Positions 3,008-63,476 of a stretch of DNA of 64,000 nucleotides are shown here, one piece after another. Within the stretch, counting starts at the first letter, position 1. Each line of letters starts with the position of its first letter. The notes under the pieces were generated by a model. The model saw only the letters and a list, made by a program, of their open reading frames with translations. It ran no database searches and was not told where the DNA came from. Position numbers and translations under genes: made by a program. The stretch is from Lytechinus pictus (lineage: Eukaryota): contig NC_087245.1 of NCBI RefSeq assembly GCF_037042905.1, forward strand, positions 18,726,001-18,790,000, in the 5' to 3' direction.

Positions 3008-3063
3008 ATGGCAGATCGATTCAACAGACAGGTTAGGGTGGACGAGAAGATGCATTTTCTCTT
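3008..3063 (+). CDS. Coding exon 1 (MADRFNRQVRVDEKMHFL); acceptor at 2965 implies an upstream 5' UTR exon
   Basis: Kozak-like gccgccaagATGg; donor gtaagt at 3064; phase 2 fits the next exon. Confidence 0.6.
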
Positions 3064-6000
3064 GTAAGTATCACCACGATTATTTATCTATTTTTTAGAA
3101 TGTTGAATTGTAATTCCAGATTACCTGGGTTAGAAATTCTTGTACAAAATTCCAGAAATACATACACACCAACACCATCCATAACAATATAACAAGTATT
3201 CAAAAATGAAAAACTTTTTAGTGTGACATACTGTACTGATATAAGGAAGTCATATATTTTTATTTGAAAAAAAAAAACATTTTTCAACCATCCCTGGTAA
3301 TATCTTATTAAATGTTCGAATGTTCCATTTAGATATTTTTACCTACATGTATTCTGTGTAAACATGATACTTTTCATTTCCGAGTTAACATGTTTATTTA
3401 CTAAGGCTATGTCAAGGCTTGTACAAGTACAACGTGTATGTTTGTCAGTCATTCATAAAGAGGATCTCTAATTATTTTAAATGGAAATCAATTCTCCCCT
3501 AACTGGTCAGTTTTTCTATTAAAGATTTTTTTGTACTAAAAACACACCTTTGCCATTCAAAATTGCAATGAAACACTGATGACATATTTCCATTCACTGC
3601 AGAATAATGATAATAATCATACATATCGGATTTATTTAGCATCTTTTCCATTTTGATTAAATGCTCAAGGCGCTTTGAAAAGATCAAAAACAAAAAAGTT
3701 AAGAGAAATTAGAGGAGGACAAAAAAAGGCACATTACAAATTATGAGGAAAACGTCTGTCTTCAAACCTAGTACCTGATGGTGAACAAATGCAGTTTTAA
3801 GTTGCCCTTAAAGGATGTTCAGCTCCTGTGGTAGTGAATTCCACAGGACTGGTCCTGCATGAGCAAAGGCTCGATTGCCCCCAGGATTGTTTAGATAGTG
3901 GAAAATGTATAAGACTTGATTTAAAGGACAAGTCCACCCCAACAAAAAGTTGATTTGAAAAAAAGGAGAAAAATCCAACAAGCAAAACACTGAAAATTTC
4001 ATCAAAATCGGATGTAAAATAAGAAAGTTATGACATTTTAAAGTTTTGCTTAATTTCACAAAACAATTATGCACATCCTGGTCGGTATGCAAATTGGCAG
4101 ACTGATGACATCACCCACTCACTATTTCTTTTGTATTTTATTATATGAAATATGAAATATTCTAATTTTTCCTTGTCAAGTGAAGCAAAGTTTTATGTCT
4201 CCCTGAACATGTGGAATTACCATTATTTCAACAGTTTATGGTTAAGGTAAGTTGGTCCCTATTGTCAAATTTGTAAAAATTGAAATATTGTATTATTCAA
4301 ACAATAAAAAACAAAATAGTGAGTGATGGACATCATCGACTTTCTCATTTGCATATTGCTGAGTTGTGCATTTAACCGTTTTGTTAATAAGAAGCGAAAC
4401 TTTAAAATGTCATAACTTTCTTATTTTACATCCGATTTCGATGAAATTTGCAGCGTTATGTTTCTTTGATTTTTCTCTATCGATTCAAATCAACTATTTT
4501 CTGGGGTGGACTTGACCTTTAATGGGATGATCGCAGTGTGCGTACAGGTTGATACTGGCGTATGATAGACTTGTTGTAATTGGGTGCGGATCCAGAAGTA
4601 ATCATATTTGCAGTTTTAACACTTAAATTTTTGTCTTGACTTGGACATTTAAGAGTAATCAAGTATTACTGAACATCTTGTGCGAGTTTCAGGTCACATG
4701 ATCAAGGTCAATGAACTTTGGCATGTTGGGGGTATTTGTTGAATTACCATCATAACTTTGAAAGTTTATTGGTCTAGTTCATAAAACTTGGACATAAGAG
4801 TAATCAGGTATCACTGAACATCCTGTGCGAATATCAGGTCACATGACCAAGGTAAAAGGTCAATGAACTTTGGCCATGTTGGGGGTATCTGTTGAATTAT
4901 CATAACTTTCAAAGTTTATGGATCTGATTCATGAAACTTGGACATAAGAGTAATCAGGTATCACTGAACATCCTGTGTGAGTTTCAGGTCACATGATCAA
5001 GGGCAAAGGTCATTTAAGGTAATTGAACTTTGGCCATTTTGGAGGTTATTATTAGGGCTGCTTTAAAAAGTGTTCCCAAGTCACTGATTATGGAACACAT
5101 GATTCCTCCAATTCTTCTCCCATTCTTCTCCCATTCCATTGTTCCAATGAAACAATTGACAGTAGCATTATGCATGATGATAATTTCTATAGATCTTCAG
5201 TAAAACGTTTGGTATCTTTATTTTAGCCATCCCATTATATTGACATTCAAATTCAAACCTCCGTGAAAAACAAACTACGGAAGCATGATTGGAATTTATT
5301 ATTATTTTATCCGGATTCATCGATGTCCTCTTTGATAAATGGTGGTTGACATTATTTGATGCACACTTTAAAAAAAAGGGGAAGATGGATTTGGTAGAAT
5401 TTTGCAAGCCAAAGTTGGCATCAATTGGTATAAAAATGAAAAAGTTAGAGGATTTCTGATTGCTGGCTTTTCTATTAAACTGATAATAGCTTGGGTTTAA
5501 TTCACAGAATACTTTGAACAATGATTCTGTTGAATTAATGATAATAATAATAATGCTGGCTACTTATAAGGCGAACAGGTCCACCTTCTGCAGCCTGTTG
5601 CATAAAACTTTTTACCTGAGAAAACTCTGGTAAAAACTGAAAACCAAGGTTAGTCTGATTTCTGCCATTGACTTTAACACGGGGCAAAAACTCAGGTAAA
5701 AAATACCTGAGTTTTTTCAGGTAAAAAGTTTTATGCAGCAGGCCCCTGGTACCCATGGCGCTTCAAGAAAAATAAACACACAAACAATACATAACATGCA
5801 TGCATACATGTACATGTATGCATGTATTCTCGGGGAGAGGATAATAGAAAATTCATACCATATGGTGCTACAGTATCTGCATGTGTACATTTACCATTTT
5901 TATTTATTTTTCATTTTTTAATTTGTGGAGTGCTTAGTAGAAAATGATTTATAACAGTCTTCAATTACAATGTATGTGGATTGCTTTGAAAGATAACTAA

Positions 6001-27000: not shown

Positions 27001-30000
27001 CGATCAATCGCAAGTATGGAAAGCCAGCAAAGTCAACATAAAAAATGCATGTTAGCTCAAAATTTTCTCTACATATGAATGTATATCCATAAATTCATTG
27101 ATTACTTGACAATTTGGTGTGTTCTCCTTTGTTTTTAAAGAACATTTTGCAAATTTCCTGTAGAAAAATTATGACACTGATGGATTTCCATAGAGTTACG
27201 ATTGATTGGATCAATCATAATTCTTTGTAAGATGGGGCCCTGATATCTTCTATAATCATCTGCGATCCAAACCTTTCATAAAGGCTTACAAATATAATTA
27301 TCTTAGATGCTTTGCAGACCTTGTTACCAATCCTGGCAAGTAGAACTATTGTACTTGACAATCCTCACTAACAGTTACAAAGATAAAAGTTCGGTATAAT
27401 TGGACTACACAAAAGTGGTTTGTCTGACCATAGAAACAGTTATTTTTTTTAATGTCAAGAATGTAAAGGCGTTTGAAGCACAATCCTCTGCAGTAGACCA
27501 TTTTTGTCTCGCCGCATAGTAGAGCGAGACTATTATAGGCGCCGCTTTTCCAACGGCGGCGGCGTCAACATCAAACCTTAACCAAAGTTTAAGATTTTGA
27601 AATGTCATGACTTGAAAAGTAAATGGCCTTGTTCGTGAAACTTGGACATAATGGTTATCAAGTATTACTGAACATCCTGCCAGAGTTTGAGGTCACATGA
27701 CCAAGGTCATGTAGGGTCAATGAACTTAGACCTTGGGGGAATCAACAACTTAGCCAAAGGTTAAGTTTTTGAAATGCCATTATTACTTAGAGAAAGTATA
27801 TGGACCTTGTTCATAAAACTTGGACATAAGGGTAATCAAGTATTACTGAAAATTGTGCCTGAGTTTCAGGTCACATGACCAAGGTCAAAGGTCATTTAGG
27901 GTCAACAAACTTTGGCCATTTTGGGGGTATTTGTTTATTTCCATCATAACTTTGAAAGTTTATGGTTCTGGTTCATGAAACTTAAACCTAATAGTAATCA
28001 AGTATCACTGAACATCTTTTGTGAGTTTCAGGTGACATGACCAAGGTCAAAGGTCATTTAGGATAAAAAAAACGTAGATTATGTTGGGGGAATCAAAAGG
28101 AAATCTTAACCAAGGTTTAAATTTTTAAATATCCTAACTCTAAAAGTGTATAGATCTACTTTTTGAAACTTGGACATAAAAATAATCAAGCATCAGTGAA
28201 CATCCTGCGTGAGTTTTAGGTCACATGACCAAGGTCAATGAACTTTGTCTGTGTTGGGGGTATTTGTGGAATTGCTATCAGAACTTTGAAAGTTTATGGA
28301 TATAGATCATGAAATGGGAACATACGGGTAATCAAGTGTCACTGATCATAGTATTTTTTCATCATATGAATGGTGGGTTTTTTTGTGAATGATTATTCTA
28401 TAGTCGTTTTCAAAATCAGCACTGCTGCTATATTGATTCATGTAATGCAGGCGAGACTGCCAGAGGCATTCCTCTTGTTCATAACATTCTTCCTAGATAT
28501 CATTTGAAAGCTTGCAAATGATATTCCTCTATCCTACAATTGTATTTCCACTTTCAGCTTCCGTTTTACCTCTATTAAGTTTCATTAACATTTCCCCTTA
28601 TGACCTTCAACCTCTCAATCTCCGTCTCCTTTCTATGAGCTTTGCATTGTTTATAACATAACCCTCCTTCACATTTAAAGTTTCTGTGGGATATTTGATG
28701 GCTGTATAACTCATTATCTTCTCCTACACAGTTGGCATGTGGGCTCTGTTTCACCAAGACCAAGCAGGTAGTCGAGCAGAACCCTCGAAAGCGCAACCAA
28801 TGTCCCAAGGGTCATCCATGGGGCAAGAACCCTATCTACTTCTTGGAGTCCAGTGGCAGATGGCTACGGATCCAAGGCAGGCACCCCCGTCTCCGTCCTG
28901 AAGTGGAGCCAGTTGTCTGCAGGAAGGGAGACAAGTGCCAGTACAGTGTGATTCACAACAACCAATGCATGTACCCTCATTCGCCTGAAGAGCGTTTGCT
29001 ATGGATATACCAGGTTAAGGCCAAAGGTAATGATCCTCATGGAATGGGAGGGAGATCAAAGCACCAGACGTGCAAACTATCAATTGATAAAGCGGTAGCT
29101 GAAAGAAACGGGAATCAGGGATGCCAGAGTTCTGGCTATAGCCAGAATTCTGGCTTTTTTCATTTTTTTGACTGGCTGGTCAAGTTTTCTCAGGCCTGAT
29201 AGAACAGTCACCAGCCAGGCATGGCTGTTCAGAGAGCACCGCATACCATACAATATGCAACCCGGAAGTTGCAGCGGCCTTTTGCTCCCGCATTACGCTT
29301 AGACCCCATGTCTGCCGTTAGCTTGCCTTCAACTTGATTTCTGTGCAAATTCAATGCGGTAGACCTTTTTCTTTTTTGATTGGTCATTTTGAAAATACTA
29401 TAGTAAGTTTACGAGAGCGCTTGTGAACTCGGAACAAACCACAGATTTCTTCATTTTTAGCGCATTTTTTGACGACCTTGCTTTTTAGATTTGAGCCAAG
29501 CTGCCGCATGCTCTGGAAATATGGCAAAGATTCCGCATTTATGAAAGGAAAATTAGACTTTTAAAAGGAGATTTTGGACCTGAAATCGGGACTTTCATGG
29601 GGAGAATGATACATGTAGTACCTGTGTATATGATAAAGTGTTTAATGTGTGTTGTGCACTGTGGTGATTGCCTGTGCTGTAGAAACAGATAAATGAGTAT
29701 GCCATGTGGAATGGAGGCACATGTCAAATTACGGGCATGTAGTAAACTTCATCAAGACATCATTATTGCTTATATATTATGTTATTCAAACGTGAGCTAA
29801 ATTTTGGGACAAATGATACCTGAAATAGGCTCAGATTGAATCAGAGACCATTTAGAACCCTAGAGCTTGGGGAATCCTGGACCCCGACCGGAAGAGACCT
29901 TGCGCACATAACTTACCTTCTGAGAAATTTTCTGGGCTCTGGACAATTTGCCACTGGCATCCCTGAAGAATGAATCCCTAATTTGTGAAGAAATAAATTT

Positions 30001-33000: not shown

Positions 33001-35334
33001 AATAACCAGATCAAAAACATTTAGAAAACTCTTTGTTTTTTGTGTTTTTTTTAGCAATTTCGATATTATTGTTTCTGTTACAGATGACGGAGGAGATTCC
33101 TGGGATCAGTACTATTTGTTCTAAGGACCTGAAGGCAATACTTCCAGTCAAAGAAAGGAAGTATGGTGAAGAGATTGCATTCCAATGGGAGTTTGAAGTA
33201 CAGTCAGTTAGGGTAAGACCGTCTTACACATAAACTATCTTGGTTTATTTCTTAGAATATGTGAAGTCAGCAATTCGCAAGTAATGATAATACTCATGAA
33301 GTCTGTAGAACTCTAGTTTCCATTTTATGAGAAGTGATAATGATGACACAAGCTCCAGTGACATTGATCATCGTAACAGGTAATCTGTATTTGGCTTTTG
33401 TACAGTAGGTAGTACTTTGTAATATTTCTGACACTGAGCTTAGAGCAAGTACTTAAAATACTAGTAATACAGTGCGTCCCACAAAAAACGAAACCGAGAT
33501 TTATCGATGATTTATCATAACTTAATCACAAATACAATAGACAAATGACCTACCATTGTAAAGCTTAGAATCTCCTCTTTCATCTGAAATTACTTAGATT
33601 ATTTCTCATTCACACATGACTGAGCAAAAACAATTTGAAGAGGGGATTCCAAAAAGTCATTTGGCGGGCTGTATCTGGGTTTCAAAAAGAAAACCACATT
33701 TTTATAAAGTTCAATATCTGCTCTTTAATTTGATACCTCAATTACAGAAAATGGTCAAAAAATAAAAAAGTTCTGGTTATTTGAAATAAGGCTTGAATTT
33801 CAATAATTTCATAAAATTAAGAGGTTCTACAGGCTAGCGTTCAAACTCACTTGACACTCCGTTTTGTTGATGATCAGCCATGCATTAAGTCTTTTGTTAA
33901 CCATGCGATTGCTTCTGTGGGAAACTGGTGAAAACACGTTTATTTAATGAAGTTATGGAAATACAAGCATTGTTTGGAGGGAAAATAACTTTTTTACTGC
34001 TTGACCATTTTTTGTGATCAAGGTATCAAATAAAGAGCAGATATTGAACTTTCTAGGCATGTGATTTTCTTTTTGAAATTCGGATACCCCCGCCAAATGA
34101 GTTTTTGGTATCCTTCAAATTGTTTTTGCTCACTCATGCGTGAATGGGGAAAAATCTAAGTAATATCAGATGAAAGAGGAGATTCTAAGCTTTACATTGG
34201 TAGGTCATTTGTCTATTGTATTTGTGATTAAGTTATGATAAATCATCGCTTAATCTCAGTTTCGTTTTTTCTGGGATGCACTGTATATTACATTGGGGGT
34301 CTTAGCTAATTAAGCTATTCAATCACAGGTTTGGTCTTCTCCTTTAGGTATTTTCAGGCCAGGGAAAGATAGATAATCTTTGTTTTGTTTTGTTTTACCT
34401 TGAAGTTTGTATCATGTTTGTTTGATTTAGTTTTTTTGTTTTAATGAAATGATGATTCTTATCTCTTTGTTCTTTGTACTTGCCGCATCCATACCGTATT
34501 CGTTTTAGCAAGCCTTTTTATGGGTTTTTTGTACATGCCCATTTCCATTCATTATTTTATTCATCTATATTTTTATAACTATGTACCTACCATTATCTTG
34601 TCATTACCACTGTTTGCTCCGGTTATGTTTTGTTGATACCTTTGTTTTGTTTCATTCTTATTTACATATAATTTTGTTCTCATTGTGTTCTTTTTAATTT
34701 GGAAATAAATACTTGAATTGAATTGAATTAAATTGAATATTTACCATGCGAGATAGAAGGAGGAATATTTAGACCATTGCATGAACCTTGGTGTTCATAA
34801 ACTACTAAGACATAAAACTACTACTTAATAAAAATCCTTAATGTGTCAAGTTCCTTCCATGGAAACTGACACTTGTGAGTTTTTAAATTTCCAGTGCTTA
34901 CTGTCATTGTAATGTCATCTATGGTGTGGATGGTCTAATTGATTATGCAATTTAAAAATCACTTCACAGAAATCTCTTAGGAGGGTTGGTCTCCTATATG
35001 ACGAGCATCGCCTTCACTTCCATTTGTCACAACCCGATGATGAAGACCGCCCTCAAGTGTGTCCCGGTGGTCTGATATCTGAAGTCGGCGGAACGTCCTA
35101 CAAGATCAAGATTGAATTCCATACTCATATCCTGGGTCTCTTCCATCAGTGGGTTGTCTTTGACTTTGGTAAGTTAGAATGGTGATAATGGGATCGTGAT
35201 GGTGATTGGTAAAATTGCAAGTGATGCTTCTGGTGGTGATGTTGATACCGGTGATGAAGAGGAGGATGATGTTGGTGGAGATGGTGATGATGGTTGTGAG
35301 GAGATGGTGGTGGTGGTGGTGATGGTGGTAATGG

Positions 35335-35372
<38 letters not shown>

Positions 35373-38300
35373 GTGGTGATATGATGATGATGATGGTGAT
35401 GATGATGATGATGATGGTGGTGGTGATATGATGATGATGGTGATGATATGATGATGATGGTGGTGATATGATGATGATAATGAAAATGATAGTGCTGTTT
35501 GGGGAAAATATGAAGAAAAGGGTGATTGTTGGGAATATTGATTATCTAGGTGATTATAACAATCAACAGTGATTGCCATAATTGTAATGAGTAGGATAAG
35601 TGATGAAAATGTTTGAACAGCGTTGCAATGGATATGAACATCACTTGATGATATTCTTTTCCTACAACATATCTTTTCTATCTTTTTTTAATGTTGGTAT
35701 GTGTAGGTGAGAAGCCTGTATTGTTGCGGAAGCTTTCCATCCATGTTGGATCATCCAATGAGCTTGAAAAGTTTGCTAAGCAGCAGCAGACAAGGGAGAA
35801 GATCAAACTCTGGGATAGCGGTAACAGTCAGATCATCCCGTTCACCAAACCAGACATCCATGAGTGGGAAAGACAGTAAGTCAAACAAGTGCTGAATGCT
35901 TGCAGGGTGATCCTGCTTCCAAATATCTTGCTCATATGGGCATCCAATTTCAAACTTTAAATGAGGGTTGAGTTATTAACAGAGAGGATGACCAAAGTCT
36001 ATGTTAGAGGCTGGATTTATTGAAAATGATTTTAACATAAAAGGTGTGTTTGTGGCAAAACTTGTCCATGGAGCCTTTATCATTCCTTCCTAACCCCCCC
36101 CCCACAAACAAAAAGAAAATATGATATTAAAGGCTTCACATATTCTCGATGTTGGTGGTGGTGGTGATGATGATGACGATGATGATGATGGCGATGATAA
36201 TTATAGTATTTATTATATTTTTTTATGGTAAGAAGAAAAAAAAAGAAGTTGCTGAGTTTCTCCACCATTACTCCCTCCTCAGATTGATAGCTCATTACAA
36301 ACAACCTACAACCCTGTCAGGTCTGGAGGATGAAGAGACTGATAGACGATTGAATGAAGAGAACTACAAACTTCACATGCATCGTATGCTGAATCTAGAA
36401 GAACTAGCATGCATGGATAGACTCATAAGGTATGGTATCTTCAAATAGTTTCATGTCGTAGTAGATTATAAATAATCATGTCTCAATAGCATGAAAATAA
36501 TCCTTGAAGAAATGCTGAGTAATCATAGGTCTGTTATCACAAAGAAAATCATCCTGCTTAATAAAAGAATAAAGAAAAATTCCTTATTATGACCTACACA
36601 TTTTCTTATATAACATTTCATGGATTTCAATGAGCTATTATAATGCAAACAGGTTTTCTTTCACACCTCGACAGATAATAAAGAATTGATAATGATTTAC
36701 TGAGTCATAGCCCATGGATTCAGAAGCAAATGATGTTCTGTAATTCTATTCTATGACTATACATTGTAGATATAGTACTTCTTCTGAGATGTCCGTGTCG
36801 AACCAAGCTGACATGGGTTACCCCTACGGGACTCTTTTCGCTTCTAATGGGGAACTCTTTGGTACCATCAAGATTGAGGTACCGTTGTATGACGACTCCG
36901 AGACATCACAGATCGTTAGGGAGAGTGTTTCCCAGGTCCTTCTCAAATTCAATCAAGAATCTGATGTGGTCTATGAAGCAGTCATCATCAAGGTGAGATT
37001 GATTTATTTGACAATCATGGTTACATCTTTGCTTTTCACAACTTTACTCATGCAAAGTTTCGGTTTACCCCATTGAAATTAGAGAGGGTTGGGAGGGGGG
37101 TAAGTCAGCATATGTAGATCACTGTTATTCGTCTAAACTGGTTTATCACAGTTTTGCTCTTCAAAGCTGCCTGAGGCATCTCATTCCAGTCGCAGTAATG
37201 ATCAATTTTTAACTATCTCCCCCCCCCCCTGGATTACGTGGGTGGCCTCATTGTCCTTGTTACTCAAAATGCTCTCGCCTTTCCTTCCATTTTGCCCATT
37301 TAAAATATCTTCCATTTCTAATCCAACCTTCCTCATATTCTTTCTTCAACACTTGCATCTGTCGTGTTTTGATGCCCTTTAATTTATTATCAACCTACAT
37401 CTCGAAGGCCCTTCTCAAAATATAAGTCAATACCAATTTTCTGTATTTGTCTCACCATCTGATCCACTGCTTCCAATTTCTACATCTACATCAAAGATAA
37501 ATAAATACTGATAACCCTTGCTTTCGATTCCGCACAGAACGCCATGCCCAAGGACCAATCAGACGACTATGTCTGTGTCAAGTTGAGTGCCCAGTGTGTC
37601 CAGGAGCAGAACCTGACATCCTTTGTGACCTTCAGCGGAGACAAAGCAGCATCTCAGAAGGTAGTCCCAGTGATCATCCAGTTCCAGCTTGATCGTATCA
37701 ACTTTGTCTACCAGCACCATGCCGTGGATAACCTCAACTGCATGACCGTCCTCTTCCCGCCTTATCCTCAACAGGACAAGTACGTGTTCCAGGGATTGAG
37801 CGATGTTTATTTCGTATTCCAATTATAGATTAATGTATTGTTCGGGTCATCTGATTTTGGCAATGTAGACATACGGTGACCACAAAATCATGTTTTGTGA
37901 TCATTTTAAATACCAAATCATGTGATGTACATGTATGTAGCAATTATTTTATTTCACGATCAATATTGAATGACCAATTATCATGATGATTCTGTTCTTG
38001 TGCAGGGGCAGCACCATAAGAGAGGTGCCAACCTCCCCACCCCCCCCCCACTATTCAATCAGTGAAAAAATTAGGAGAAAAATAAAGAGGAATCGGAAGA
38101 ATAGTTTAAAAAGAAGTGGTATAATTAGGAGAGGTATAAAAAGGAGATGTCTGGATCATTTAAATCTATGATATCTCTGTAATTTCAGTTGAGAAAAAAT
38201 ATGTCACCTTTCTTCGGGTCATTTTGTTGAACGTGTTTTGAAATGATCTCGGCAGGTTTGAGTATGTCAGCTGGAGGGAAGTCGAGAGTCGAGATGAGAA

Positions 38301-41300
38301 GATGAATCCAAGGCAGGAGAAAGCGGCTCGCTTCATCTGCTCTGCTGGTGGTCTCCGTGGCAACAGCCACTTCCGAGGCAAAGGTCCTGTTATAATATTT
38401 GGTCCGTTCGGCACCGGCAAGACCTACACGATGGCCAACTCTGTAAAGCGGACTATGCTCGTCAGGAATGACTCGCGCATCTTGATCTGCACTAGATCCA
38501 ATAGGTAAGTAATAAGTGACTGACTATGCTCACACAGTTCCTGGGAGAGTGTTTCATGAGGGAACATTGTCAGTGATTTTGACTGTAAGCCACTGGAATA
38601 CCTGTATTTGATTGGCTGAGAGTCTATCTGTTTGTTAAAGTCTCTGTTAAGTTGCTTCATGAATGGAAAATTATTTACTGTATAGATCTAATACTTACAG
38701 GATTTTTTTCCAGAGTGTAGGAATTTTCATCAAAGTAAATGTCATTCAGAATTAAAAATGGAAAATAATTAAAAAGCTCTTGGAAAATAAATGCAGTTTA
38801 GGATTTAAATATGCCCTCCGTTGATATCTGTAAGACTTTCCCAATTCACAAATACTCTCGTCCATCTATTTGATTCAGGCTTTGATTATTCAGAGAGCTT
38901 GAAGTAAGATCAGAAAACACTGGTAATCTCCAATTTATTTTTTTTTGGGGGGGTATGCATGCATTCATTCATGGATGATTGAAAGTTGTGATGAGGTATG
39001 AGTCTAGCGTTAGTGGAACATGCATATTTGAATCTAGGAATTTAGAATGCATTACAACTTGGTTACTGATGGGGAACACTGAAACTCTTTTTTTTTTGTA
39101 GTATATCCCATTAAACTGAAACTTTGACCTTTGTTCACCTTTCCAAATCATATAATCTTCTCTTGCAATGTGTTTCTTTCATTTTACAGTGCTGCTGACC
39201 TGTACATCACTGAGCACTTAGACGAGTTCTGTAGCGAACATCCTGGGACAGTCTACATGGTGCGGATGTATTCAGTGACTCGCCAGACTGGAACCATCCA
39301 TGAGAAAGTCATGAAGTATGTGCTGAAAGACGACCAGGGAAACCTGAGACATCCATATGACCAGGAGCTGAGTGGTAAGTGACTTTATTCTGCTTGAAAA
39401 TGCTCAAAAAGTCAGAAGCAATGTCTCCTACCTATTGAATGGTTGCTTTTCTCGTAATAGAGCAGGAGCATATTTGTGTGTCAGCACACGGTTTAGTCTT
39501 TCTCTTGTCCCTAATATCTTATTCATGTGTACAATAGATCCATAACAATATAGAGGGCAGGTTGGGGGGGATTTAAATGATAAAGGCTCTAAAGCAATCA
39601 CAACTAAACTGTTTACTTTGTCTATGTTTTTAAAAATTCCCAATGGCTATATCTGTTTGGTTTGTGTACTTAAATTCCATTTTATTTATGTTTTCTGTTT
39701 GTTAATTTTTAATCTGATGCAAAAAAAAAAATCTGCATTTTGGATGCTAATAAATTCAATTCTTCATACTGGTTTCATGATTATCCGAGAATAAGATACT
39801 AGTGATATGCTTCTCAAAGCACTGCACTTAAAACTTTGCTGGAGTGGTTTTGTCTTATGTCTTCTCCCTTCGGCTCCCCTCCCCCTTCATATCTTGTTTC
39901 TAATCATATTTAACAAGAAAATGTCATGGCACATTTGCTATCTTTTCACTTTGTGTCACATCTGAAAAAAATTTGGTGGTCACAGTTTGGAGCCCTTATT
40001 TGAGTCTGTCATAAACTCGGAATAACTTTATGAATAATTTAATGAAACCATTCCTGGTTTAGAAGTCCAAGATTATTCACATGTTTTCAATACTTTGATG
40101 TTCAAGTTCTTATGAACTCAAGACATGTATTGACTGTGGTACCATTATGTCACCCACAGACTGGGCCACTTATGCCAAGACACAGACGGAAAGCAACCGT
40201 CGGACACCCAACATTGTCATCGCAACCTTGAACACAGCCATTCACCTGACCCGTAATCTTGACCTGAAGGAGTACTTCACCCACATCATCATCGATGAAG
40301 CTGGTCAGGTCAGAGAGACGCAAGCCATCATTCCCCTTCAGCTGGCAACAAATGATACGTGTGTCGTACTGGCCGGTGATCACAAACAAATAAGCCCAAA
40401 GGTATAAACAGATATCAGTTGTAAATGCAAATACTTTTAACAGGGAATTGCGAGAAATTTGCGATTGGAAATGATACAATTGAGTGAAATGATGGATTGT
40501 TTAACTCATGTAAGATTTATCTATCAGTTTCCTGCAATACCCCTACAGTATGTTAGGGTTAAAGAGTCTGTTTGGTTGTAAATGTTTATATGTACTTATT
40601 ATTATCTATGTTTAAAAAAAATACAACCGTGTATCATAACTTATTTCTTAATCCTTAATCCTTTCAAACCTTGTGTATCTCATTTTTCAAATTATGGATG
40701 CCTAAGAATACATCTCCAAAGCTATCCATTTTGTGAATATATTAGAAGTTGATTAAAATCATGATTTCAGGTACCATGATACAAATGATTGGTAAGATTA
40801 TGAATATTCTTGCGCTCTCATTCACAGGTATACTCTCCCCGTGCCCGCAGTGCCAAATTCAACGAATCTTTGATCCAGCGACTCTTCACGTACAGTCGCG
40901 ACCACAAGTGCTTCTTTCACCTCCTCCTGACCTACAACTACAGGTCCTGTAAGGAAATCCTTGACTTCCTGGCCTCCTACTACCGTGCTCGCCTAGAAGC
41001 CCGGGGTACCCACCCAAGACATCCTCTCTTCTATCCTCTGAACTTCTATGTGGTGAAGGGAGAAGACAAGCTGATGGGAACATCCTATGTGAATTTACAG
41101 GAGATGCTAGAAGTGGCCTTCAGAGTGGACGATCTGGTTCAGAACTGGCCCCCTGCCTGGGGTCCAGTCGATGATGAGAGCATAGCTGTTCTGACCCCAT
41201 ACACCCTCCAGGTAAGAAGATCCATCAGGTTTATGGTGGGGATAAGTTCTTGACCTGGTGACGCATGGAAATTGTGGTTATAATGCACCTCAGAATATGT

Positions 41301-44300
41301 GTATGTGCTTGCTTTAAGATTTTGGAATCACCAATATCGGAAGAATCATCTCAATTTTTCTCAGCTGTTGGTTTGTTTTTCCCACCTCTATTTGGCAAGT
41401 TTATTGTTGCCTCTGGCCAGTATTCTGAACCCGTTAAATTCACTCTTCATTCTAACGTTTTGGTAATTGTGACACAAGTCTCTCATAATACAGGTTTAAT
41501 TTACATTTGCTTAGAATTGTCAAGCAATAATTACCAAATTAGCATTCTTCACCATTAAAGCATTTGGAAAAACATAAGAAACATACAGTTTAACAAAACT
41601 TTTGACATTTTTGGCTTCCCGTAATTTTAGCAGATTTTAATAGACTGAAGCCTATAATGTTAAAATGTACTTCATATAAATGTGTTTCCCCAAGGCATTT
41701 GAGTGACATGTGTGGTTGAAGTTCAGGGGGCCGTTTCATAAAAGTTGTCAGCACTGACAAGTTATCTTTCTCCGACAGTTACCTTAGTAACTATCAGAGG
41801 CCAGTGCCTCTCAGCCAATCAAAACCAAGGATTTCACTGAAATTGTCAGTATTGACAATTTTAATCAGTGCTGACAACTTCATGAAACACCCACCAGGAC
41901 TTATGTTATGTTGACATAAAAATGAAGGAAAAAATGTCAATAATCATTACATGTAGAAGTAAAGAGAAGGATTGATTCTTGTACATTGTAGAAAGTTGTA
42001 GAAATGTTGAGGGGATCTTTTCTCTTTTTGCTCTTTTTCTAGGTGCACATCATACGCAAGGAGCTTAGGCGCAGAGGCTTGGGACAAATCACTGTTGACA
42101 CTGTACAGAATGTGCAAGGTAGAGATATCTTTTACAATTTATTTTTTTATTAGAATACTTTCATTATATTGCTATGACAACTAGTGTTTTTATTTATCCA
42201 CCATGATGCAGAGATACCAACCCAGACGATTCCATTGTAAGGCTCCTGGAAATGAAATTACTTCTTTACCTGTTTAAAACAAAAAATTAAAAAAGTGTTT
42301 TTCACATGAGCTTTTCAATTCTTATGCTCTTTGTTTGACAGATGCTCAGCAGTGTTGATTCAAATAGCCAAGATCTTCTTTTGAACTTCACTATACAATG
42401 AAACCAAATATCACAAAAGAATAAATCTATGCTGAATGTACATGGAACACCAAGGCACTATCATGAAGGGTTATAGGCAATTTTCTTTTAGAACTTGTAT
42501 GTTATTTTCCCTTACAACTATTTGCATGACAGTAAATGTATATTGGAAACATTGATGTATAAGCATCTTTTTCAATCAGATATTTCTTGTATTAAGATGA
42601 ACATTTGGTTGTTGGTTGTTTATTCACTGGTCTTTTAAAATTTCTTAAGTGAAATTCATAATTCATTTCTTTTTACACTTGCAGGAAAGCAGTTCAGGGC
42701 TGTGGTGATTAGTACAGTTCGTACCAGAGAGACGGTCAACAAGGCTCATATCACTGCTATTCCACAAGCGTCAGGAAACCATCAAGAAAACGAGTTCTAC
42801 TATGCCTTCCTGTCTGACGAGCGCCTCCTCAACACGGCATTCACCCGTGCCAAGTCGTTGATCCTAGTGGTAGGGGACCCAGTGGCTCTCTGCTCAGTCG
42901 GGGCCTGCAACATGACATGGGTACGCTACATGCAGGAATGCCAGAAGAACAACAGCATAATGCCACCAGATATGACCATGGATATGATTCAGGAGGAGAT
43001 AGCAGCTGCAAAGCAGAGGCTGAATCCCACTGCTGCACCATTTCAACCACGGAAGGGAATATCTTCCTCGACAACATCCACGGCTTCTCCAAAGACACAT
43101 CAGTCGGCTTCCGCTTCTAACCATGTAGGTGGTTCTCCATCCCGATGGACTGATGGGAATAGCATATGGAGTAGGTCCACTAGGAATACCCGCAGTAGTT
43201 TCCCAGCAGGAGCAACTGCAGGATATCAGCGACTAAACAGTGACGAATATCCAGAACTACCCGAACTGAATCATGTCCAAAATCATGCTCAGAATACCTT
43301 GCATGAATCAGATGAGGAAGATGAGTTTGAAGATACAAATGAGTTTGAGGACATAAATATCCAGGATGATGACCTCCTGGAAGAGCTCCGTCTACAAGTG
43401 AAAGTGGACTATCAAGAGGAGATGAAGAAAAGTGGTGAAACCATTGAAAGTCCAGAATCTGGTGAGGGTACAGAGTCTGAACCCGAAACATCACCAGAAC
43501 CTGAAGAAACACCTCCACCTCAGATACTGCAGCGAGGTAAACCTGTTCCAGCACCCTTAGAAAGAGGTGCCACCCAAAGGGAAGCAGACAGTAAATCTAA
43601 ACCACAGAGAGAAACTGTAAAACAAGCCACTCAGACACTACCCACCCAGCAGCCTCAAACTTTGTCAACAGGTCAGCCATCCAAGCCAGATGTCGATATT
43701 TCAATCCCAACTGACGGAAATATTCCCAGCTTCCGTATGGTGGAAAGGGCTGGACGAATTGCTTTGCTGCCAAGACACATGCCGCAGAGGGCCCTAAGTC
43801 AAGTAGAAGATTATGATTCAGATGAAGATGAAGCACACGGAGTGGCAGATGAAAAAACTGAAGATGACTTCCTGGAGAAGACCGTTACGGAACCTGAAAA
43901 GTTCAAGGTCTGCACCTTCAGATATGATTTAAAGGGCAGGACAGAAGCCATACCTCATGAACGTGAAGCTTCAGAGGTCATATCAATCACCAGCAAGAAA
44001 CGAAGAGGGCAAGCATTAGATAATGATGAGGTTGTGGTTGAAATAGTAGAGAACACAGAGGGCACAGAAGAATTGGAAGGAGTCGATTTGCTTGTGAAGG
44101 AGGAAGAAGAAAATCGAATCTATGGGAAAGTTGTTCACATCCTGAAAAGAGATTCTGATCCCTATCTACGCAAACTTGTTTGTACCCTAGACCCCTTCAG
44201 CAACAACCTGATGGTGCCAGTAGACCGTACATTCCCAAAGCTCTTCATAACGAAGACAGAAGACAAAGCTGAAGAGTCAAGAGACAAGAATCTGACAAAG

Positions 44301-47300
44301 GTCACAATACACACCATCTCTCGTGCTGCTGCTCAGACACAAGGCCGCTTTACACCAGACAGAGATGTGTACGTCAATAACAAAGAACGCCCTCATAAGC
44401 TCTTTGTTGTTCGTTTCTGGAAGTGGTATGCAAAGACACCATACCCACTAGGAGTGGTCATTGAAGAACTTGAACCAGGGATGAATCCGAGGGAGGGACT
44501 TCACATCCTGAAGCTGATTCACAATGTGAAAGACAAGTTCAAGGACTCGGTTAACGCTTACCTGAGAGAAAACTTTCCTGTAGGATGGACCATCCCAAAG
44601 GCAGACCTGGAGAAAAGAGTAGATCTCACAAAAATGAAGATCTTTACCATTGACCCTCCTGATTCGGAAGATCTGGATGATGCAGTTAGCTTGGAACCCA
44701 TCAGTGGAAATTGTTACAGTGTTGGGATCCACATAGCTGATGTATCATACTTTGTTCCCAAAGGAAGCGACCTTGATGAAGAAGCAAGGATTCGATCAAC
44801 ATCCTTCTATCCATCCTTCCATGAAAAACCCATCCACATGCTTCCTAAGAAGATAAGCACTGACTTGTGCAGTCTCCATCCTAATAAGGACAGGCTGGCC
44901 TTGTCCTTGATAGTAGTACTCAACTCTGATGGAGTACTTGTTGAGCCACCAAATGTGTTCCGTACAATCATTCGTTCTTGCCATAAGCTCACCTATCATC
45001 AGGCAGAAGAGATCATCCATGGAGACTGCCCTGATGAATTACAGGATGTTGCTGAACCCATTCGCTGCTTACACAATCTGGCAAGCAGGAAACGGGCTCA
45101 CCGCCTGGGAGATAAGAAGTATGTGTTCAATGCAGAGGATGATGATGGAGAGGTGCAGGATCCACTAGCTCACAGCTTGATTGAAGAGATGATGGTTCTT
45201 GCGAATGAAATTGTTGCAGATCATCTTCTGCTCAAGTATGCAGACTGTACGCCCCTACGAAGGCAGTTAGCACCAGCACAAGATAAAGTGGAGGAATGGA
45301 GGAAGACACACAAGGATGGTGTCCGCAATAGTATTCTGCTGACTGCCACTGTGAATCAGGATCAGGAAGAAGATGTTGACTATGATGATGATGATGATGA
45401 TGAAGCCGTACTTCCGTTGACCAAACCAGTATGGGAGGAAATTATTCAGGCCTCCAATGAGAACACTCAGAAATCAATGGATAAGGTCATCAACATGATT
45501 TGCATGGATCCAAACCATCCTCTTCAAGCTGTAGCTTTGTCTCAGTTTCATCGGATTATGGAGCGCTCAGAGTATGTGAATTCGGGAGACCAGCAAGGTC
45601 CTGAACAGAAGGCCCACTTCTCATTGAAACTAAAAGCTTATGTTCACTTCACATCACCGATTCGCAGGTTCATTGATCTTGTGGTACACCGGATGCTGAT
45701 TGCTAGCTTGGAAAATCTGCCATGTCCCTATGAAGCACGAGAGCTTGCCAACATTACTCATAATTGCTCAAGCAGAGCTATGCATGCCCAGCGCTTCTCA
45801 AAGGAAAGCAAGTCTCTTCAGCTGGCTCTGAAGTTAAAGGAAGCACCACTGCAGCTACTGACGTTTGTTGAGACACTATCAGATTCTGGGTTGAAGCTTC
45901 TCTTTCCACATAGGCCCTACATTCTACCAACACAATGCAAACTGGGCTTCAACATCCTCAAACCATCAAAGAGACCAGAGACCACTGCAGCATCTGAATC
46001 TGTTGACCTAGCATGGAAGACTCGAATCTATGACGTAAAACTTGAAGGACATCAGAGGCATGGACACAGAAAGGATCCCATAGAACTGGATAATAGACGC
46101 CACATTGTGCATATTCCAGAGGACAACTGGGAAGACATCCGTAACAGTGCAAAGACAGGAGATCATGACTCCATCAGAAGAGCCATTGGGTCAGCCATCA
46201 ATTCTGGGGGGCAAGAGCTTCGTCAGTGCATGGATCAAATGAGGAGATTTAATGAGCAGTCCTCGATTGAAGTGACTTGTGAGTATGTGGACATGACGGG
46301 AAAGCAGCAATATTTTATTGACTTCTGCCGTTCCTTCAGGAAAGGCGACGTGAACCAAGTCCAGCTTCATGCTCGTCTCTTCAAAGGTGTCTTGACTCCA
46401 CATGTCCAGCTCTTCAACATGACGCCTCACCTGGACGTGTGTGCAGAGCACCGTGATCAGCCTGTCCATTGCTTTTCAGACGTTGCCACCAGGATTCCAG
46501 GAAGGGAGAAATCCATTGCTGAATACAAGAAGTCCTGGCTTCCCATCTTGTCAATGATTAGTGCTTACAGTGCTGTTAACTCTGATGACACTGTCACCAT
46601 CCACAATGTGGTGATTACCTGGAATAAATTAGAAGGCAACAGGTATCAGGGCTACTTCAATCTTCCCCTACCATTTCTAGAGCAACGCTTTGTTCGTATC
46701 GCCGGGAAACCACCAAAGAAGGAAAAGGGTAATGAAGATGAGGAGGACTACCCACTAGATTTCATCTGTGTCCGTTACAAGGATCTGCGCATCTCAACTC
46801 GAAAGCACCTTAAGATGCGTGAACTGGACAGAAGTTCCAAGAACCAAGAGACAATAGGACCTTACAATCGTCGAGCATGGACTGAGCAGACCTTCGTAGC
46901 GCATGGGTACTCCACAGATGTCCAGACTGACAAGACTGCCCAGCTTCGGACCATCACCTTCCAGCTCCACACCACGTCCATACCCTTTCCAGAGGATAAA
47001 CTACTCTATCAACATGAAGGAAAGCAGATAACATGCACCATTGAAATCATCCCCAAGTCTCCTCCTGATCAGTAAGCATAAGTTTGTTAAAATTCTTGAT
47101 TCTCTTGTCAAGTGAAGACTTTTCAGATCAAAATGTCAATTGATAGGCTGTCTAACCTTTTAGCAATAGTGATATGAAAGGAGATAAAAGAAAACCTATT
47201 AATTATTCCAAAATACATGTGAAAGTAAACTTATACACACTTTTTTGTGATTGTCATTATTTGATTAACTGAAAACCTAAATTGGAGTGTAATGTAACCC

Positions 47301-59300: not shown

Positions 59301-62300
59301 TCACTGTCGCAAACTATTGATTCTCATCTTTGATTCAGGCCAATCATCACAGAACCCAATGCACGAGATCTTGGCATGGAGGAGTCCCTCCTAGCAAAGT
59401 ACAAACGCAAAGCTCGTATGCTCACTATCCAGTATCGTATGGTAAGTCATAATGATTCTGATCACCAGTAACGCAAAGCTCGTATGCTCACTATCCAGTA
59501 TCGTATGGTAAGTCATAATGATTCTCATCACCAGTAACGCAAAGCTCGTATGCTCACTATCCAGTATCGTATGGTAAGTCATAATGATTCTGATCACCAG
59601 TAACGCAAAGCTCGTATGCTCACTATCCAGTATCGTATGGTAAGTCATAATGATTCTCATCACCAGTAACGCAAAGCTCGTATGCTCACTATCCAGTATC
59701 GTATGGTAAGTCATAATGATTCTCATCACCAGTAATGCAAAGCTCGTATGCTCACTATCCAGTATCGTATGGTAAGTCATAATGATTCTGATCACCAGTA
59801 ACGCAAAGCTCGTATGCTCACTATCCAGTATCGTATGGTAAGTCATAATGATTCTCATCACCAGTAACGCAAAGCTCGTATGCTCACTATCCAGTATCGT
59901 ATGGTAAGTCATAATGGTTCTCATCACCAGTAACGCAAAGCTCGTATGCTCACTATCCAGTATCGTATGGTAAGTCATAATGATTCTCATCACCAGTAAC
60001 GCAAAGCTCGTATGCTCACTATCCAGTATCGTATGGTAAGTCATAATGATTCTGATCACCAGTAACGCAAAGCTCGTATGCTCACTATCCAGTATCGTAT
60101 GGTAAGTCATAATGATTCTCATCACCAGTAACGCAAAGCTCGTATGCTCACTATCCAGTATCGTATGGTAAGTCATAATGATTCTCATCACCAGTAACGC
60201 AAAGCTCGTATGCTCACTATCCAGTATCGTATGGTAAGTCATAATGATTCTCATCACCAGTAACGCAAATCTCGTCTGCTCACTATCCAGTATCGTATGG
60301 TAAGTCATAATGATTCTCATCACCAGTAACGCAAAGCTCGTATGCTCACTATCCAGTATCGTATGGTAAGTCATAATGATTCTGATCACCAGTAACGCAA
60401 AGCTCGTATGCTCACTATCCAGTATCGTATGGTAAGTCATAATGATTCTGATCACCAGTAACGCAAAGCTCGTATGCTCACTATCCAGTATCGTATGGTA
60501 AGTCATAATGATTCTGATCACCAGTAACGCAAAGCTCGTATGCTCACTATCCAGTATCGTATGGTAAGTCATAATGATTCTCATCACCAGTAATGCAAAG
60601 CTCGTATGCTCACTATCCAGTATCGTATGGTAAGTCATAATGATTCTCATCACCAGTAACGCAAAGCTCGTATGCTCACTATCCAGTATCGTATGGTAAG
60701 TCATAATGATTCTCATCACCAGTAACGCAAAGCTCGTATGCTCACTATCCAGTATCGTATGGTAAGTCATAATGATTCTGATCACCAGTAACGCAAAGCT
60801 CGTATGCTCACTATCCAGTATCGTATGGTAAGTCATAATGATTCTCATCACCAGTAACGCAAAGCTCGTATGCTCACTATCCAGTATCGTATGGTAAGTC
60901 ATAATGATTCTCATCACCAGTAATGCAAAGCTCGTATGCTCACTATCCAGTATCGTATGGTAAGTCATAATGATTCTCATCACCAGTAACGCAAAGCTCG
61001 TATGCTCACTATCCAGTATCGTATGGTAAGTCATAATGATTCTCATCACCAGTAACGCAAAGCTCGTATGCTCACTATCCAGTATCGTATGGTAAGTCAT
61101 AATGATTCTGATCACCAGTAACGCAAAGCTCGTATGCTCACTATCCAGTATCGTATGGTAAGTCATAATGATTCTGATCACCAGTAACGCAAAGCTCGTA
61201 TGCTCACTATCCAGTATCGTATGGTAAGTCATAATGATTCTCATCACCAGTAACGCAAAGCTCGTATGCTCACTATCCAGTATCGTATGGTAAGTCATAA
61301 TGATTCTCATCACCAGTAACGCAAAGCTCGTATGCTCACTATCCAGTATCGTATGGTAAGTCATAATGATTCTCATCACCAGTAACGCAAAGCTCGTATG
61401 CTCACTATCCAGTATCGTATGGTAAGTCATAATGATTCTCATCACCAGTAACGCAAAGCTCGTATGCTCACTATCCAGTATCGTATGGTAAGTCATAATG
61501 ATTCTCATCACCAGTAACGCAAAGCTCGTATGCTCACTATCCAGTATCGTATGGTAAGTCATAATGATTCTCATCACCAGTAACGCAAAGCTCGTATGCT
61601 CACTATCCAGTATCGTATGGTAAGTCATAATGATTCTCATCACCAGTAACGCAAAGCTCGTATGCTCACTATCCAGTATCGTATGGTAAGTCATAATGAT
61701 TCTCATCACCAGTAACGCAAAGCTCGTATGCTCACTATCCAGTATCGTATGGTAAGTCATGATGATTCTCATCACCAGTAAATATGTTGCTCTGTATATT
61801 TGAATTTGTTTTTGTCACCAAGGAGGAATGTGACAAACGCAGATGAATAGATAGTTCAAGGACATACTGTCAGTGAGCTGAAAAGACTTTGTAACTCAAG
61901 TTATGGGAAGTCCCTTTCTTGTTTAATGAATGCAGTATGCTATCTATCAAGTTAAGTCCTGTCCAAATCCATGATCACTTTCTTGAAAGTTGAAACAACT
62001 TCACCTTGTCAAAGTAATGACTATCCCATTCAAGATTTTTTTTTTTTTTTTGGGGGGGACTATTTTTGTACTGCATGAATCTACAACATAAGATGAGCTT
62101 TACATTGCATTGAATGAGGGTTTTCTGGGGCTCTTCTGGTGCAAACTCATCCCCAGCCTCTATGTAATTTTTCCCTGATCCCGTTGGATACACTGTTATA
62201 CCATTCATATTTGTTTTCTCCTGTACATTTCACTTGTTTGAGGTTTGGGGGTTGTTATCAAAGAACACTACATGTAGGTCATTGTAACAATGGGATGATT

Positions 62301-63476: not shown

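Follow-up and report, generated by a model that had tools for sequence, protein, structure and literature searches.

A stretch of 64,000 nucleotides from the sea urchin Lytechinus pictus (C1:18726001-18790000 of the 812-Mb assembly, hereafter the window) holds most of a single large gene, which very probably is a member of the invertebrate-type HELZ2 family with a head that matches ZC3H7: The gene would represent an older form of HELZ2, and ZC3H7 a truncated copy of it. The parts of the encoded protein follow each other as an N-terminal motif, a three-TPR (tetratricopeptide repeat) domain, an acidic linker, four zinc-finger pairs, a helicase, an OB fold, an RNB nuclease domain and a second helicase. 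What seems to be new is that invertebrate HELZ2 opens with the whole ZC3H7 layout, unit for unit, and that this correspondence ends at a boundary between exons.

Both families are known from vertebrates. According to a recent study (Huntzinger et al., NAR 2023; PMC10516660), HELZ2 is an interferon-induced RNA helicase-nuclease implicated in defense against RNA viruses and LINE-1, whose helicases and RNB domain cooperate in the degradation of structured RNA. The same study describes six alternating C2H2-like and CCCH fingers in full-length human HELZ2, names the HELZ helicase as the closest relative of the HELZ2 helicases, reports HELZ2 from some corals and molluscs, introduces ZC3H7B/RoXaN as a partner of rotavirus NSP3 that binds pri-miRNA, and notes the similarity of the HELZ2 and ZC3H7 fingers (PMC10516660). 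Helz and Zc3h7a/b also appear together in a list of CCCH genes, with no link drawn between them in the accessible text (PMC2478707). Until now, HELZ2 and ZC3H7 have been regarded as distinct proteins with nothing more than related fingers in common. The searched text of PMC10516660 mentions no TPR, and its Supplementary Figure S3 may show more; within our literature coverage, which excludes subscription journals, we found no paper on a TPR in HELZ2, on a link with the whole ZC3H7 module or on HELZ2 of sea urchins. The novelty anticipated in a preliminary description of this DNA, made from the sequence alone, is consequently a partial one: The gene model is already in NCBI and the similarity at finger level is published (PMC10516660), and it is the whole-module link that is, as far as we found, unpublished.

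The gene was delineated starting from a stop-to-stop scan of the AT-rich window (GC content 0.31-0.45), which gave a single open frame of 1,478 codons on the + strand (42639-47075) besides many short ones. The best of the 37 longer relatives found in nr with this frame as query is P0004, ‘helicase with zinc finger domain 2-like [Lytechinus pictus]’, with 3,863 aa and 100% identity over the part covered by the query; a full-length prediction of the urchin gene thus already exists in this database. Mapped back by tblastn, P0004 falls on the window in 34 ordered pieces on the + strand. Splice joints were then assigned by a script that tries each GT/GC donor and AG acceptor around neighboring pieces, and a canonical joint reproducing P0004 was solved automatically at 32 of the 33 joints; the remaining one, between exons 14 and 15, was placed by eye (29026|GT ... 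AG|30153). Exons 2-35 have an AG acceptor and a GT donor in every case, and their translation is 99.1% identical to P0004: Of 3,729 aligned residues 27 differ, and a single gap of 7 residues falls in a repeat.

Upstream of exon 2, we take the exon with the ATG at 3008 as the true first coding exon because it is in frame with exon 2, is preceded by an in-frame stop at 2963 and translates to a nearly residue-for-residue match of the N-terminal end of P0006, the Diadema ortholog. In P0004, by comparison, the first 17 residues are missing, and another start of two residues, ‘MA’, leads directly into exon 2. Since the assembly contains no ATGGC followed by GT upstream of exon 2, this start is not encoded in it, and the database protein is probably short by 17 residues at its N-terminus. 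Exons 1-35 (3008-63476, + strand) together give 11,232 nt or 3,744 codons without a single stop, which bears out the in-phase splicing of exons 1-16 into exons 17-35 and the protein of more than 3,700 aa proposed in the preliminary description, along with its start and end coordinates and its number of exons; all peptides quoted there (LLLRAACG...ALEIR, HEFRLACEICF, FLYLCRLCFD, LACGLCF, AHSQEELEEW) recur in P0004. The gene extends beyond the window, a point that the preliminary description does not make: Position 63476 is the final base of exon 35 and is followed by a GTAAGT donor, and three more coding exons with the ~140 last residues lie 1.0-3.1 kb downstream. The whole gene therefore comprises 38 coding exons and about 3,880 aa.

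An exon chain of this kind could also be a composite of two neighboring genes, one ZC3H7-like and one HELZ2, that were merged by the gene model or by occasional read-through while their main products are separate. Databases do contain split models, namely S. purpuratus P0041 (635 aa) and Acanthaster P0195 with P0012. The RNA data, however, point the other way. We mapped about 6% of each of two raw runs declared as stranded RNA-seq (X21, X22) to region 13950-33300, to which two contig sets (from X1-X4, guessed to be RNA) were also aligned; a first mate on the minus strand was read as RNA from the + strand. At least eight exon joints were listed (e5>e6, e6>e7, e8>e9, e9>e10, e10>e11, e12>e13, e15>e16, e16>e17) with 16-40 reads each in either run, and the orientation of these reads fits RNA from the + strand throughout. 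The decisive joint e16>e17 (31622>33084), which connects the finger exons to the helicase exons, is covered by 26 and 25 reads in the two runs, on a par with its neighbors (e15>e16: 21 and 25 reads). Depth is even over exons 14-17 (about 5-12), and no pile-up of molecule ends was listed in these exons. Single contigs cross the boundary as well: One of 3,832 nt begins 660 nt upstream of exon 5, runs through exon 15 and continues for 342 nt, the combined length of exons 16 and 17, and another of 4,130 nt runs from exon 10 through exon 15 and a further 2,077 nt downstream into helicase 1. Exons 13, 14 and 15 are joined without gaps in contigs X1 and X4, and an X1 contig includes 382 nt upstream of exon 2. 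The search for transcripts ending before exon 17 accordingly met uninterrupted splicing, and together with the continuous frame this shows that TPR/finger exons and helicase exons belong to one expressed transcript. To a pair of merged genes we attach very little probability.

The domains that follow the finger pairs identify the protein as HELZ2-like. Two UPF1-like helicases of superfamily 1 flank a central RNB domain, which is preceded by a HELZ2-type OB fold. Already the protein of the 1,478-codon frame (P0001) matches Pfam RNB with E 2.2e-78 and OB_HELZ2 with E 4e-14; in P0004, RNB (PF00773) lies at 2501-2866 (E 1.1e-77, 262 bits, cut-off 29.3) and OB_HELZ2 (PF25049) at 2249-2346 (E 3.1e-14, 53 bits, cut-off 29.3), corresponding to about 44616-45713 and about 43860-44153 within exon 28. 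Helicase families of Pfam are found at about 1493-1900 and 3380-3830. The first set, which includes ResIII, AAA_11, AAA_12, AAA_30 and others with ResIII/PhoH at 1493-1703, falls into a pre-helicase and helicase 1 region at P0004 about 1110-1900 (33084..42878), and the second consists of AAA_11 (3380-3613) and AAA_12 (3625-3830) in helicase 2, which is cut by the window end. Both helicases of P0004 contain GxxGTGKT and DEAG strings; in helicase 1, they read GPFGTGKT (Walker A) and DEAGQ. Among solved structures, DIS3L2 comes nearest to the nuclease part (E 1.4e-51); the two align over the catalytic stretch DxxxxxDxDD, and the sequence search for solved relatives of this part returned no HELZ2 structure among its matches. 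Judged from this alignment, the catalytic aspartate cluster of the urchin RNB domain appears intact.

As in HELZ2, alternating C2H2-like and CCCH fingers precede the enzymatic domains of the urchin protein. Each block comprises one C2H2-like and one CCCH finger in about 100 residues, and all Pfam finger matches of P0004 are below threshold (zf-C2H2 at 983-1007, E 0.014). A finger-unit profile iterated over all fetched proteins counts four units in echinoderm and hemichordate HELZ2-like proteins, five in amphioxus, a snail and one unnamed protein, four in ZC3H7A/B with the protein ending thereafter, three in full-length vertebrate HELZ2 from about residue 17, and one in HELZ. In a block tree of 72 finger units without prior typing, the units group by position: Pairs 1-3 of ZC3H7 each join the same-position pair of invertebrate HELZ2-like proteins, with SH-aLRT branch supports of 93, 85 and 93; pair 4 lies in an unresolved grade of last pairs near the single HELZ unit; and vertebrate HELZ2 units fall within types 1 and 2. 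Profiles of the four types read 1-2-3-4 in six chordate proteins that are unnamed or of ZC3H7 type (apart from the four ZC3H7 rows from which the profiles were themselves built), 1-2-4 in all five vertebrate HELZ2, a single 4 in all five HELZ and 1-1-2-3-4 in amphioxus and a snail. Two type-1 units (1-1-2-3-4 or 1-1-2-3) occur in P0024, P0028, P0029, P0033, P0051, P0070 and P0093, which come from amphioxus, gastropods and two unnamed sources; five units may be the older state or may reflect two parallel duplications, which the block tree does not separate.

The correspondence with ZC3H7 extends over the first 1,115 residues. When 1.84 billion proteins were searched exhaustively by phmmer for relatives of residues 1-1115, 356 matched at E<=1e-3; the number falls to 127 for E<=1e-10 and to 27 for E<=1e-30. 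Among them, ZC3H7A/B-type proteins of 919-991 aa match collinearly to their C-termini with E 1e-28 to 1e-33; by source name these are ZC3H7A/B of caecilian, lungfish, frog and hagfish, along with an unnamed lamprey protein of the same layout, and a tunicate (Styela) ‘ZC3H7B-like’ protein was also matched. Proteins of HELZ2 length with the vertebrate finger layout score lower (4e-22, 1e-20). Residue 984 of the 991-aa Microcaecilia ZC3H7B (P0059) aligns to query residue 1099, and exon 16 ends at P0004 1109; ZC3H7 therefore stops only a few residues from the exon 16/17 boundary. A word-indexed search for shorter relatives of residues 1-1115 had returned five urchin-like fragments and no ZC3H7 among 8,000 scored candidates, which the exhaustive search revealed as a limit of sensitivity. 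The urchin protein thus shares with ZC3H7 the N-terminal TPR domain and four collinear pairs of C2H2-like and CCCH fingers, but it continues for about 2,750 residues after the last pair. Order and motifs, which the preliminary description had likened to ZC3H7A/B, agree at E about 1e-30, down to an end near that of exon 16.

The first of the shared elements, the TPR domain, required particular care. An iterated profile from residues 1-180 recruits the N-termini of HELZ2-like proteins from crinoids, starfish, sea cucumbers, other urchins and amphioxus and, over an enlarged protein set, also matches hemichordate P0057 and snail P0051. It finds the domain in 19 of the 37 long HELZ2-like proteins (echinoderm, amphioxus and one unknown) and in none of five named vertebrate HELZ2, which start with fingers and lack the TPR just as the preliminary description had stated. 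An AlphaFold model from a 14-row alignment (A1) has eight helices, with a predicted local distance difference test (pLDDT) score of 90 and a predicted template modeling (pTM) score of 0.82; the helices are modeled as three TPR helix pairs plus a capping helix, the arrangement of the co-chaperone type. Nearly all of the top matches listed by Foldseek are three-TPR domains of Hsp70/Hsp90 co-chaperones, the best being Sec72, FKBP38, Cyp40, Sti1, CHIP and HOP TPR1 (template modeling score 0.4-0.7 on target). Because A1 and a second profile, A2, match the same solved TPR domains of the PDB by sequence, and because of these fold matches, the N-terminal domain is a divergent but real three-TPR domain. 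By eye in A1, the urchin sequence has no Asn at the ‘NRAAC’ and ‘EGN’ positions, where ZC3H7B, amphioxus and P0033 retain it; we presume these Asn to be peptide-clamp residues that hold a C-terminal acidic peptide.

Since TPRs resemble each other, A2 was built as a control from ten HELZ2-like N-termini only, and PDB and fetched proteins were scored at the same database-size setting. The best single solved TPRs reach 50.3 (SPAG1), 38.5 (SGTA) and 38.4 bits (STIP1), with alignments from profile position about 34. ZC3H7 rows reach 82.9, 70.6, 70.3, 64.5, 63.4 and 53.0 bits, and their alignments start at position 1-5 and therefore include the pre-TPR motif that is visible in A1. A direct hhalign comparison of HELZ2-like and ZC3H7 N-termini, run without unrelated TPRs as control, gave 99.6% probability (E 1.3e-24, 150 columns). 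Taken together with the collinearity, these sequence comparisons make the TPR link between urchin HELZ2-like proteins and ZC3H7 well supported. HELZ rows obtain 20-30 bits with A2, no better than unrelated TPRs; despite high profile-profile scores we do not claim homology for the HELZ TPR, only a shared layout.

One might suppose that HELZ2 acquired the TPR-finger module solely within sea urchins or within echinoderms. A plain BLAST search with the urchin TPR segment would fit such a lineage-specific fusion, as its matches at E <1e-3 are confined to Diadema, to a weak one in Asterias and to two short fragments of urchin-like sequence, with two more that are marginal (0.004, 0.008). The iterated profile, in contrast, detects the N-terminal domain together with finger pairs in hemichordate P0057, amphioxus and a snail, and Pfam TPR_1 is listed (precomputed) for three amphioxus proteins. 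The TPR-bearing proteins of crinoid, starfish, sea cucumber, hemichordate (P0057), amphioxus and snail also have 2-5 finger pairs and, with the exception of the partial snail model, the helicase-RNB-helicase body. HELZ2-like proteins of echinoderms, amphioxus and molluscs carry the whole head, and those of hemichordates at least the finger pairs, which makes an origin restricted to urchins or echinoderms scarcely credible. Between an ancestral architecture and a lineage-specific fusion, both considered in the preliminary description, the distribution favors the former; its further idea that HELZ too derives from this architecture goes beyond the data, because the HELZ TPR is similar at the generic level only and a last-type pair is all that the fingers have in common.

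To place the ZC3H7 family, we calculated a tree by quick search from an alignment of 36 rows and 557 columns, in which the TPR and the four unit types were concatenated, and rooted it on HELZ. ZC3H7 (eight vertebrate rows plus Styela) forms one clade (100) within the HELZ2-like radiation and apart from HELZ, in a polytomy (90) with the HELZ2-like modules of echinoderms (99), amphioxus (100), hemichordates and molluscs; the urchin sequence belongs to the echinoderm clade and not to that of ZC3H7. Vertebrate HELZ2 (98) stands outside the polytomy on a long branch. Forcing it together with ZC3H7 is not rejected and even marginally better (log-likelihood +1.66; approximately unbiased test, p-AU 0.585).

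The opposite direction of change would be fusion: A free ZC3H7-like gene would be old and would have been joined to a helicase-RNB-helicase gene, and ZC3H7 of vertebrates and tunicates would descend from the unfused ancestor. Such a history is compatible with the polytomy at the base of the HELZ2-like/ZC3H7 radiation and could draw on the ‘ZC3H7B-like’ proteins that occur without a helicase in an acorn worm (P0063), a limpet (P0089, 868 aa) and a snail of the deep sea (P0093). The candidates for free invertebrate ZC3H7 do not hold up, however: Ptychodera P0063 and Patella P0089 cluster with HELZ2-like proteins of their own phyla (100, 94) instead of ZC3H7 and were rejected, and so was Acanthaster P0195 (964 aa), which equals residues 1-937 of the Patiria ortholog and is the exact front half of a split model whose back half is the ‘low quality’ P0012 (residues 967-3810). 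Likewise, a ZC3H7B query finds in the urchin genome only this gene and one other place, on C5. Moreover, HELZ also has an N-terminal TPR, one last-type finger pair and a helicase, a linkage thus common to both families. On balance we regard fusion as improbable.

The place on C5 (C5:55147987-55151379, L001) matches the ZC3H7B finger region with E 6.8e-13, has a 471-codon open frame and is probably the paralog P0007 (3,654 aa, also with TPR and four pairs). The mollusc protein P0093 has units 1-1-2-3 and ends before unit 4. The names ‘ZC3H7B-like’ or ‘uncharacterized’ of P0195, P0012, P0063, P0089 and P0093 look misleading when their sequences are considered.

Since TPR, finger pair and a closely related helicase occur together in HELZ as well, the reading with the fewest events, and the one we prefer, is fission. 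In the line of HELZ2, an ancestral TPR-finger-helicase protein would have expanded to four finger pairs and gained RNB and another helicase. Later, in the common ancestor of tunicates and vertebrates, a copy truncated behind its last finger pair would have given rise to ZC3H7, and vertebrate HELZ2 would then have lost the TPR and pair 3. The comparisons suggest, in other words, that ZC3H7A/B began as the detached front end of a HELZ2-type gene.

Several points weigh against this reading. Exon 1 and exons 18-35 lie outside the region covered by RNA mapping. At the TPR, Pfam reports no match in the urchin protein at E<=1, no Foldseek match reaches E<=0.001 (best 1.3e-3), and 18 of the 37 long proteins, including the long hemichordate P0022 and P0023, give no TPR match; some of these may be truncated models and others may truly be without the domain. 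TPR likeness is generic, with the mixed profile A1 matching unrelated co-chaperone TPRs at 1e-15 to 1e-21, and two ZC3H7 rows, Styela (47.5 bits) and Protopterus (23.9 bits), score below the best solved TPR under A2; for these reasons part of the weight of the TPR link lies on collinearity and on the motif that precedes the TPR. As to the trees, they come from quick searches of short blocks and leave many forks open; long-branch effects may have placed vertebrate HELZ2 where it stands, and the clade for the p-AU test was named after the tree had been seen. Finally, the function of invertebrate HELZ2 rests on homology with the human protein.

By this homology, the finger pairs would bind single- and double-stranded RNA, the helicases would open structured RNA using ATP, and the RNB domain would degrade the opened RNA in 3'-5' direction, all in a single chain; other proteins might dock on the TPR. 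As most invertebrate lineages examined have the HELZ2 body and the ZC3H7 module in one chain, we tentatively consider that ZC3H7A/B may be a detached RNA-recognition head that still works in trans with HELZ2/HELZ, the losses in vertebrate HELZ2 being the other half of a division of labor, although we rate this as rather unlikely. If true, ZC3H7A/B would pick out RNAs of viruses or transposons or the precursors of microRNAs, to be unwound and degraded 3'-5', and a duplication at the base of tunicates and vertebrates would have preceded the division of labor. The urchin gene and its relatives in four phyla would provide a concrete origin for the ZC3H7 family, and the invertebrate layout would explain the abrupt start of vertebrate HELZ2 with fingers. 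They also lead to the predictions that ZC3H7A/B are linked functionally or physically with HELZ2/HELZ and that the finger array targets RNA. What is gained concerns the evolution of families already known; the system itself is not of a new kind.

Table 1. Coding exons of the urchin gene and finger pairs of its product. Exon positions refer to the window unless stated otherwise, finger positions to P0004.
Feature	Position	Strand	Content
Exon 1	3008..3063	+	ATG at 3008 in strong Kozak-like context, 18 codons + 2 nt, donor GTAAGT
Exons 2-6	13975-14011, 15224-15427, 16903-16939, 18540-18700, 19056-19277	+	Pre-TPR motif, three-TPR domain (P0004 ~1-170), linker start
Exons 7-9	20388-20556, 21777-21829, 22781-22838	+	Low-complexity linker, basic then acidic
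Exons 10, 11, start of 12	23289-23661, 24496-24676, 25281-..., to 25600	+	NGQRPx repeat linker, finger pair 1
Exons 12-13	25281-26060, 26477-26710	+	Pro/Ala-rich linker, finger pair 2
Exon 14	28732..29026	+	Finger pair 3
Exons 15-16	30153-30477, 31412-31622	+	Finger pair 4; end of ZC3H7-homologous part
Exons 17-27 and start of 28	33084-33212, 34970-35168, 35707-35875, 36283-36429, 36770-36992, 37538-37779, 38256-38504, 39190-39374, 40160-40401, 40828-41211, 42043-42118, 42685-42878	+	Pre-helicase region, helicase 1
Exon 28	42685..47071 (4,387 nt)	+	Helicase 1 C-terminal end, disordered linker, OB_HELZ2, RNB, downstream region
Exons 29-35	47612-47715, 50841-50990, 51379-51516, 52703-52986, 58406-58602, 59339-59441, 63249-63476	+	UPF1-like helicase 2
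Last three exons, outside window	L003 1036-1197, about 1927-2121, 3012-3122		UPF1-like helicase 2 end
Finger pair 1	P0004 410-521		Block profile; type-1 cluster in block tree
Finger pair 2	P0004 660-769		Block profile, block tree
Finger pair 3	P0004 828-932		Block profile, block tree
Finger pair 4	P0004 979-1078		True C2H2 (jaz-like) finger + CCCH finger

The window contains a number of further sequence features. Within the NGQRPx repeat of exon 10, a 21-nt (7-codon) length polymorphism is located at 23382; the 21 nt are present in the window, the X4 contig and raw reads and absent from the X1 contig and P0004. A minisatellite at 59404-61781 (+) comprises 36 copies of a 66-bp unit with 98% matches. 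As the unit consists of the last 38 nt of exon 34 and the first 28 nt of intron 34, the intron opens with 36 tandem ATG|GTAAGT donors, of which only the first preserves the frame, a TAA following 9 codons beyond it. An 807-codon open frame on the minus strand (59391-61814) was rejected as a gene because it is a stop-free frame of this minisatellite. Intron 32 harbors on the minus strand (54536-58033) a decayed non-LTR (long terminal repeat) retrotransposon with broken frames, recognizable by a reverse transcriptase domain (RVT_1, E 3e-23) and, weakly, by an endonuclease (E 5e-4). At 15516-15611 in intron 3, 96 nt show an RNA depth >200 and about 1,500-1,600 loose-ended reads per run. A small RNA gene was rejected here, as the segment is a dispersed repeat with 1,470 first-look candidates in the genome, 40 of 40 scored ones being >=91% identical; Rfam at gathering thresholds gave no match in the whole window, this segment included. 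Introns 1, 29 and 31 contain arrays of one repeat family (4639-5012, 7507-8418, 47881-49710, 51863-52236) with units of about 145-190 bp, row periods of 145-314 bp and a common core in the consensus units of Tandem Repeats Finder. A (TGA)n microsatellite of about 79 copies in intron 18 (35252-35483) accounts for the high GC skew of its bin.

Compared with known systems, the urchin protein shares with ZC3H7A and ZC3H7B/RoXaN the pre-TPR motif, the three-TPR domain, a long linker and four pairs in the same order, and the last pair of both contains a true jaz-type C2H2 finger. ZC3H7, in contrast, ends a few residues after pair 4, has no enzymatic domain and forms its own clade of vertebrates and tunicates; as far as can be judged by eye in A1 from the residues presumed to form the TPR clamp, these seem less well conserved in the urchin copy than in those of ZC3H7 and amphioxus. 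With vertebrate HELZ2 it has in common the Pfam OB_HELZ2 family and three pairs, the vertebrate ones being equivalent to urchin pairs 1, 2 and 4, whereas about 400 additional N-terminal residues with the TPR and a fourth pair (type 3) set the urchin protein apart. Its RNB aspartate stretch looks canonical by the RNase II-family motifs as we assume them. In human HELZ2, by contrast, a key RNB residue is substituted, according to PMC10516660. HELZ resembles the urchin protein in its N-terminal TPR-like region, its one last-type pair and its UPF1-like helicase and differs by having this one pair only, neither RNB nor second helicase, and a PAM2 motif. DIS3L2 and RNase II/RNase R, finally, share the RNB fold and the catalytic stretch; DIS3L2 differs in having no helicases, fingers or TPR.

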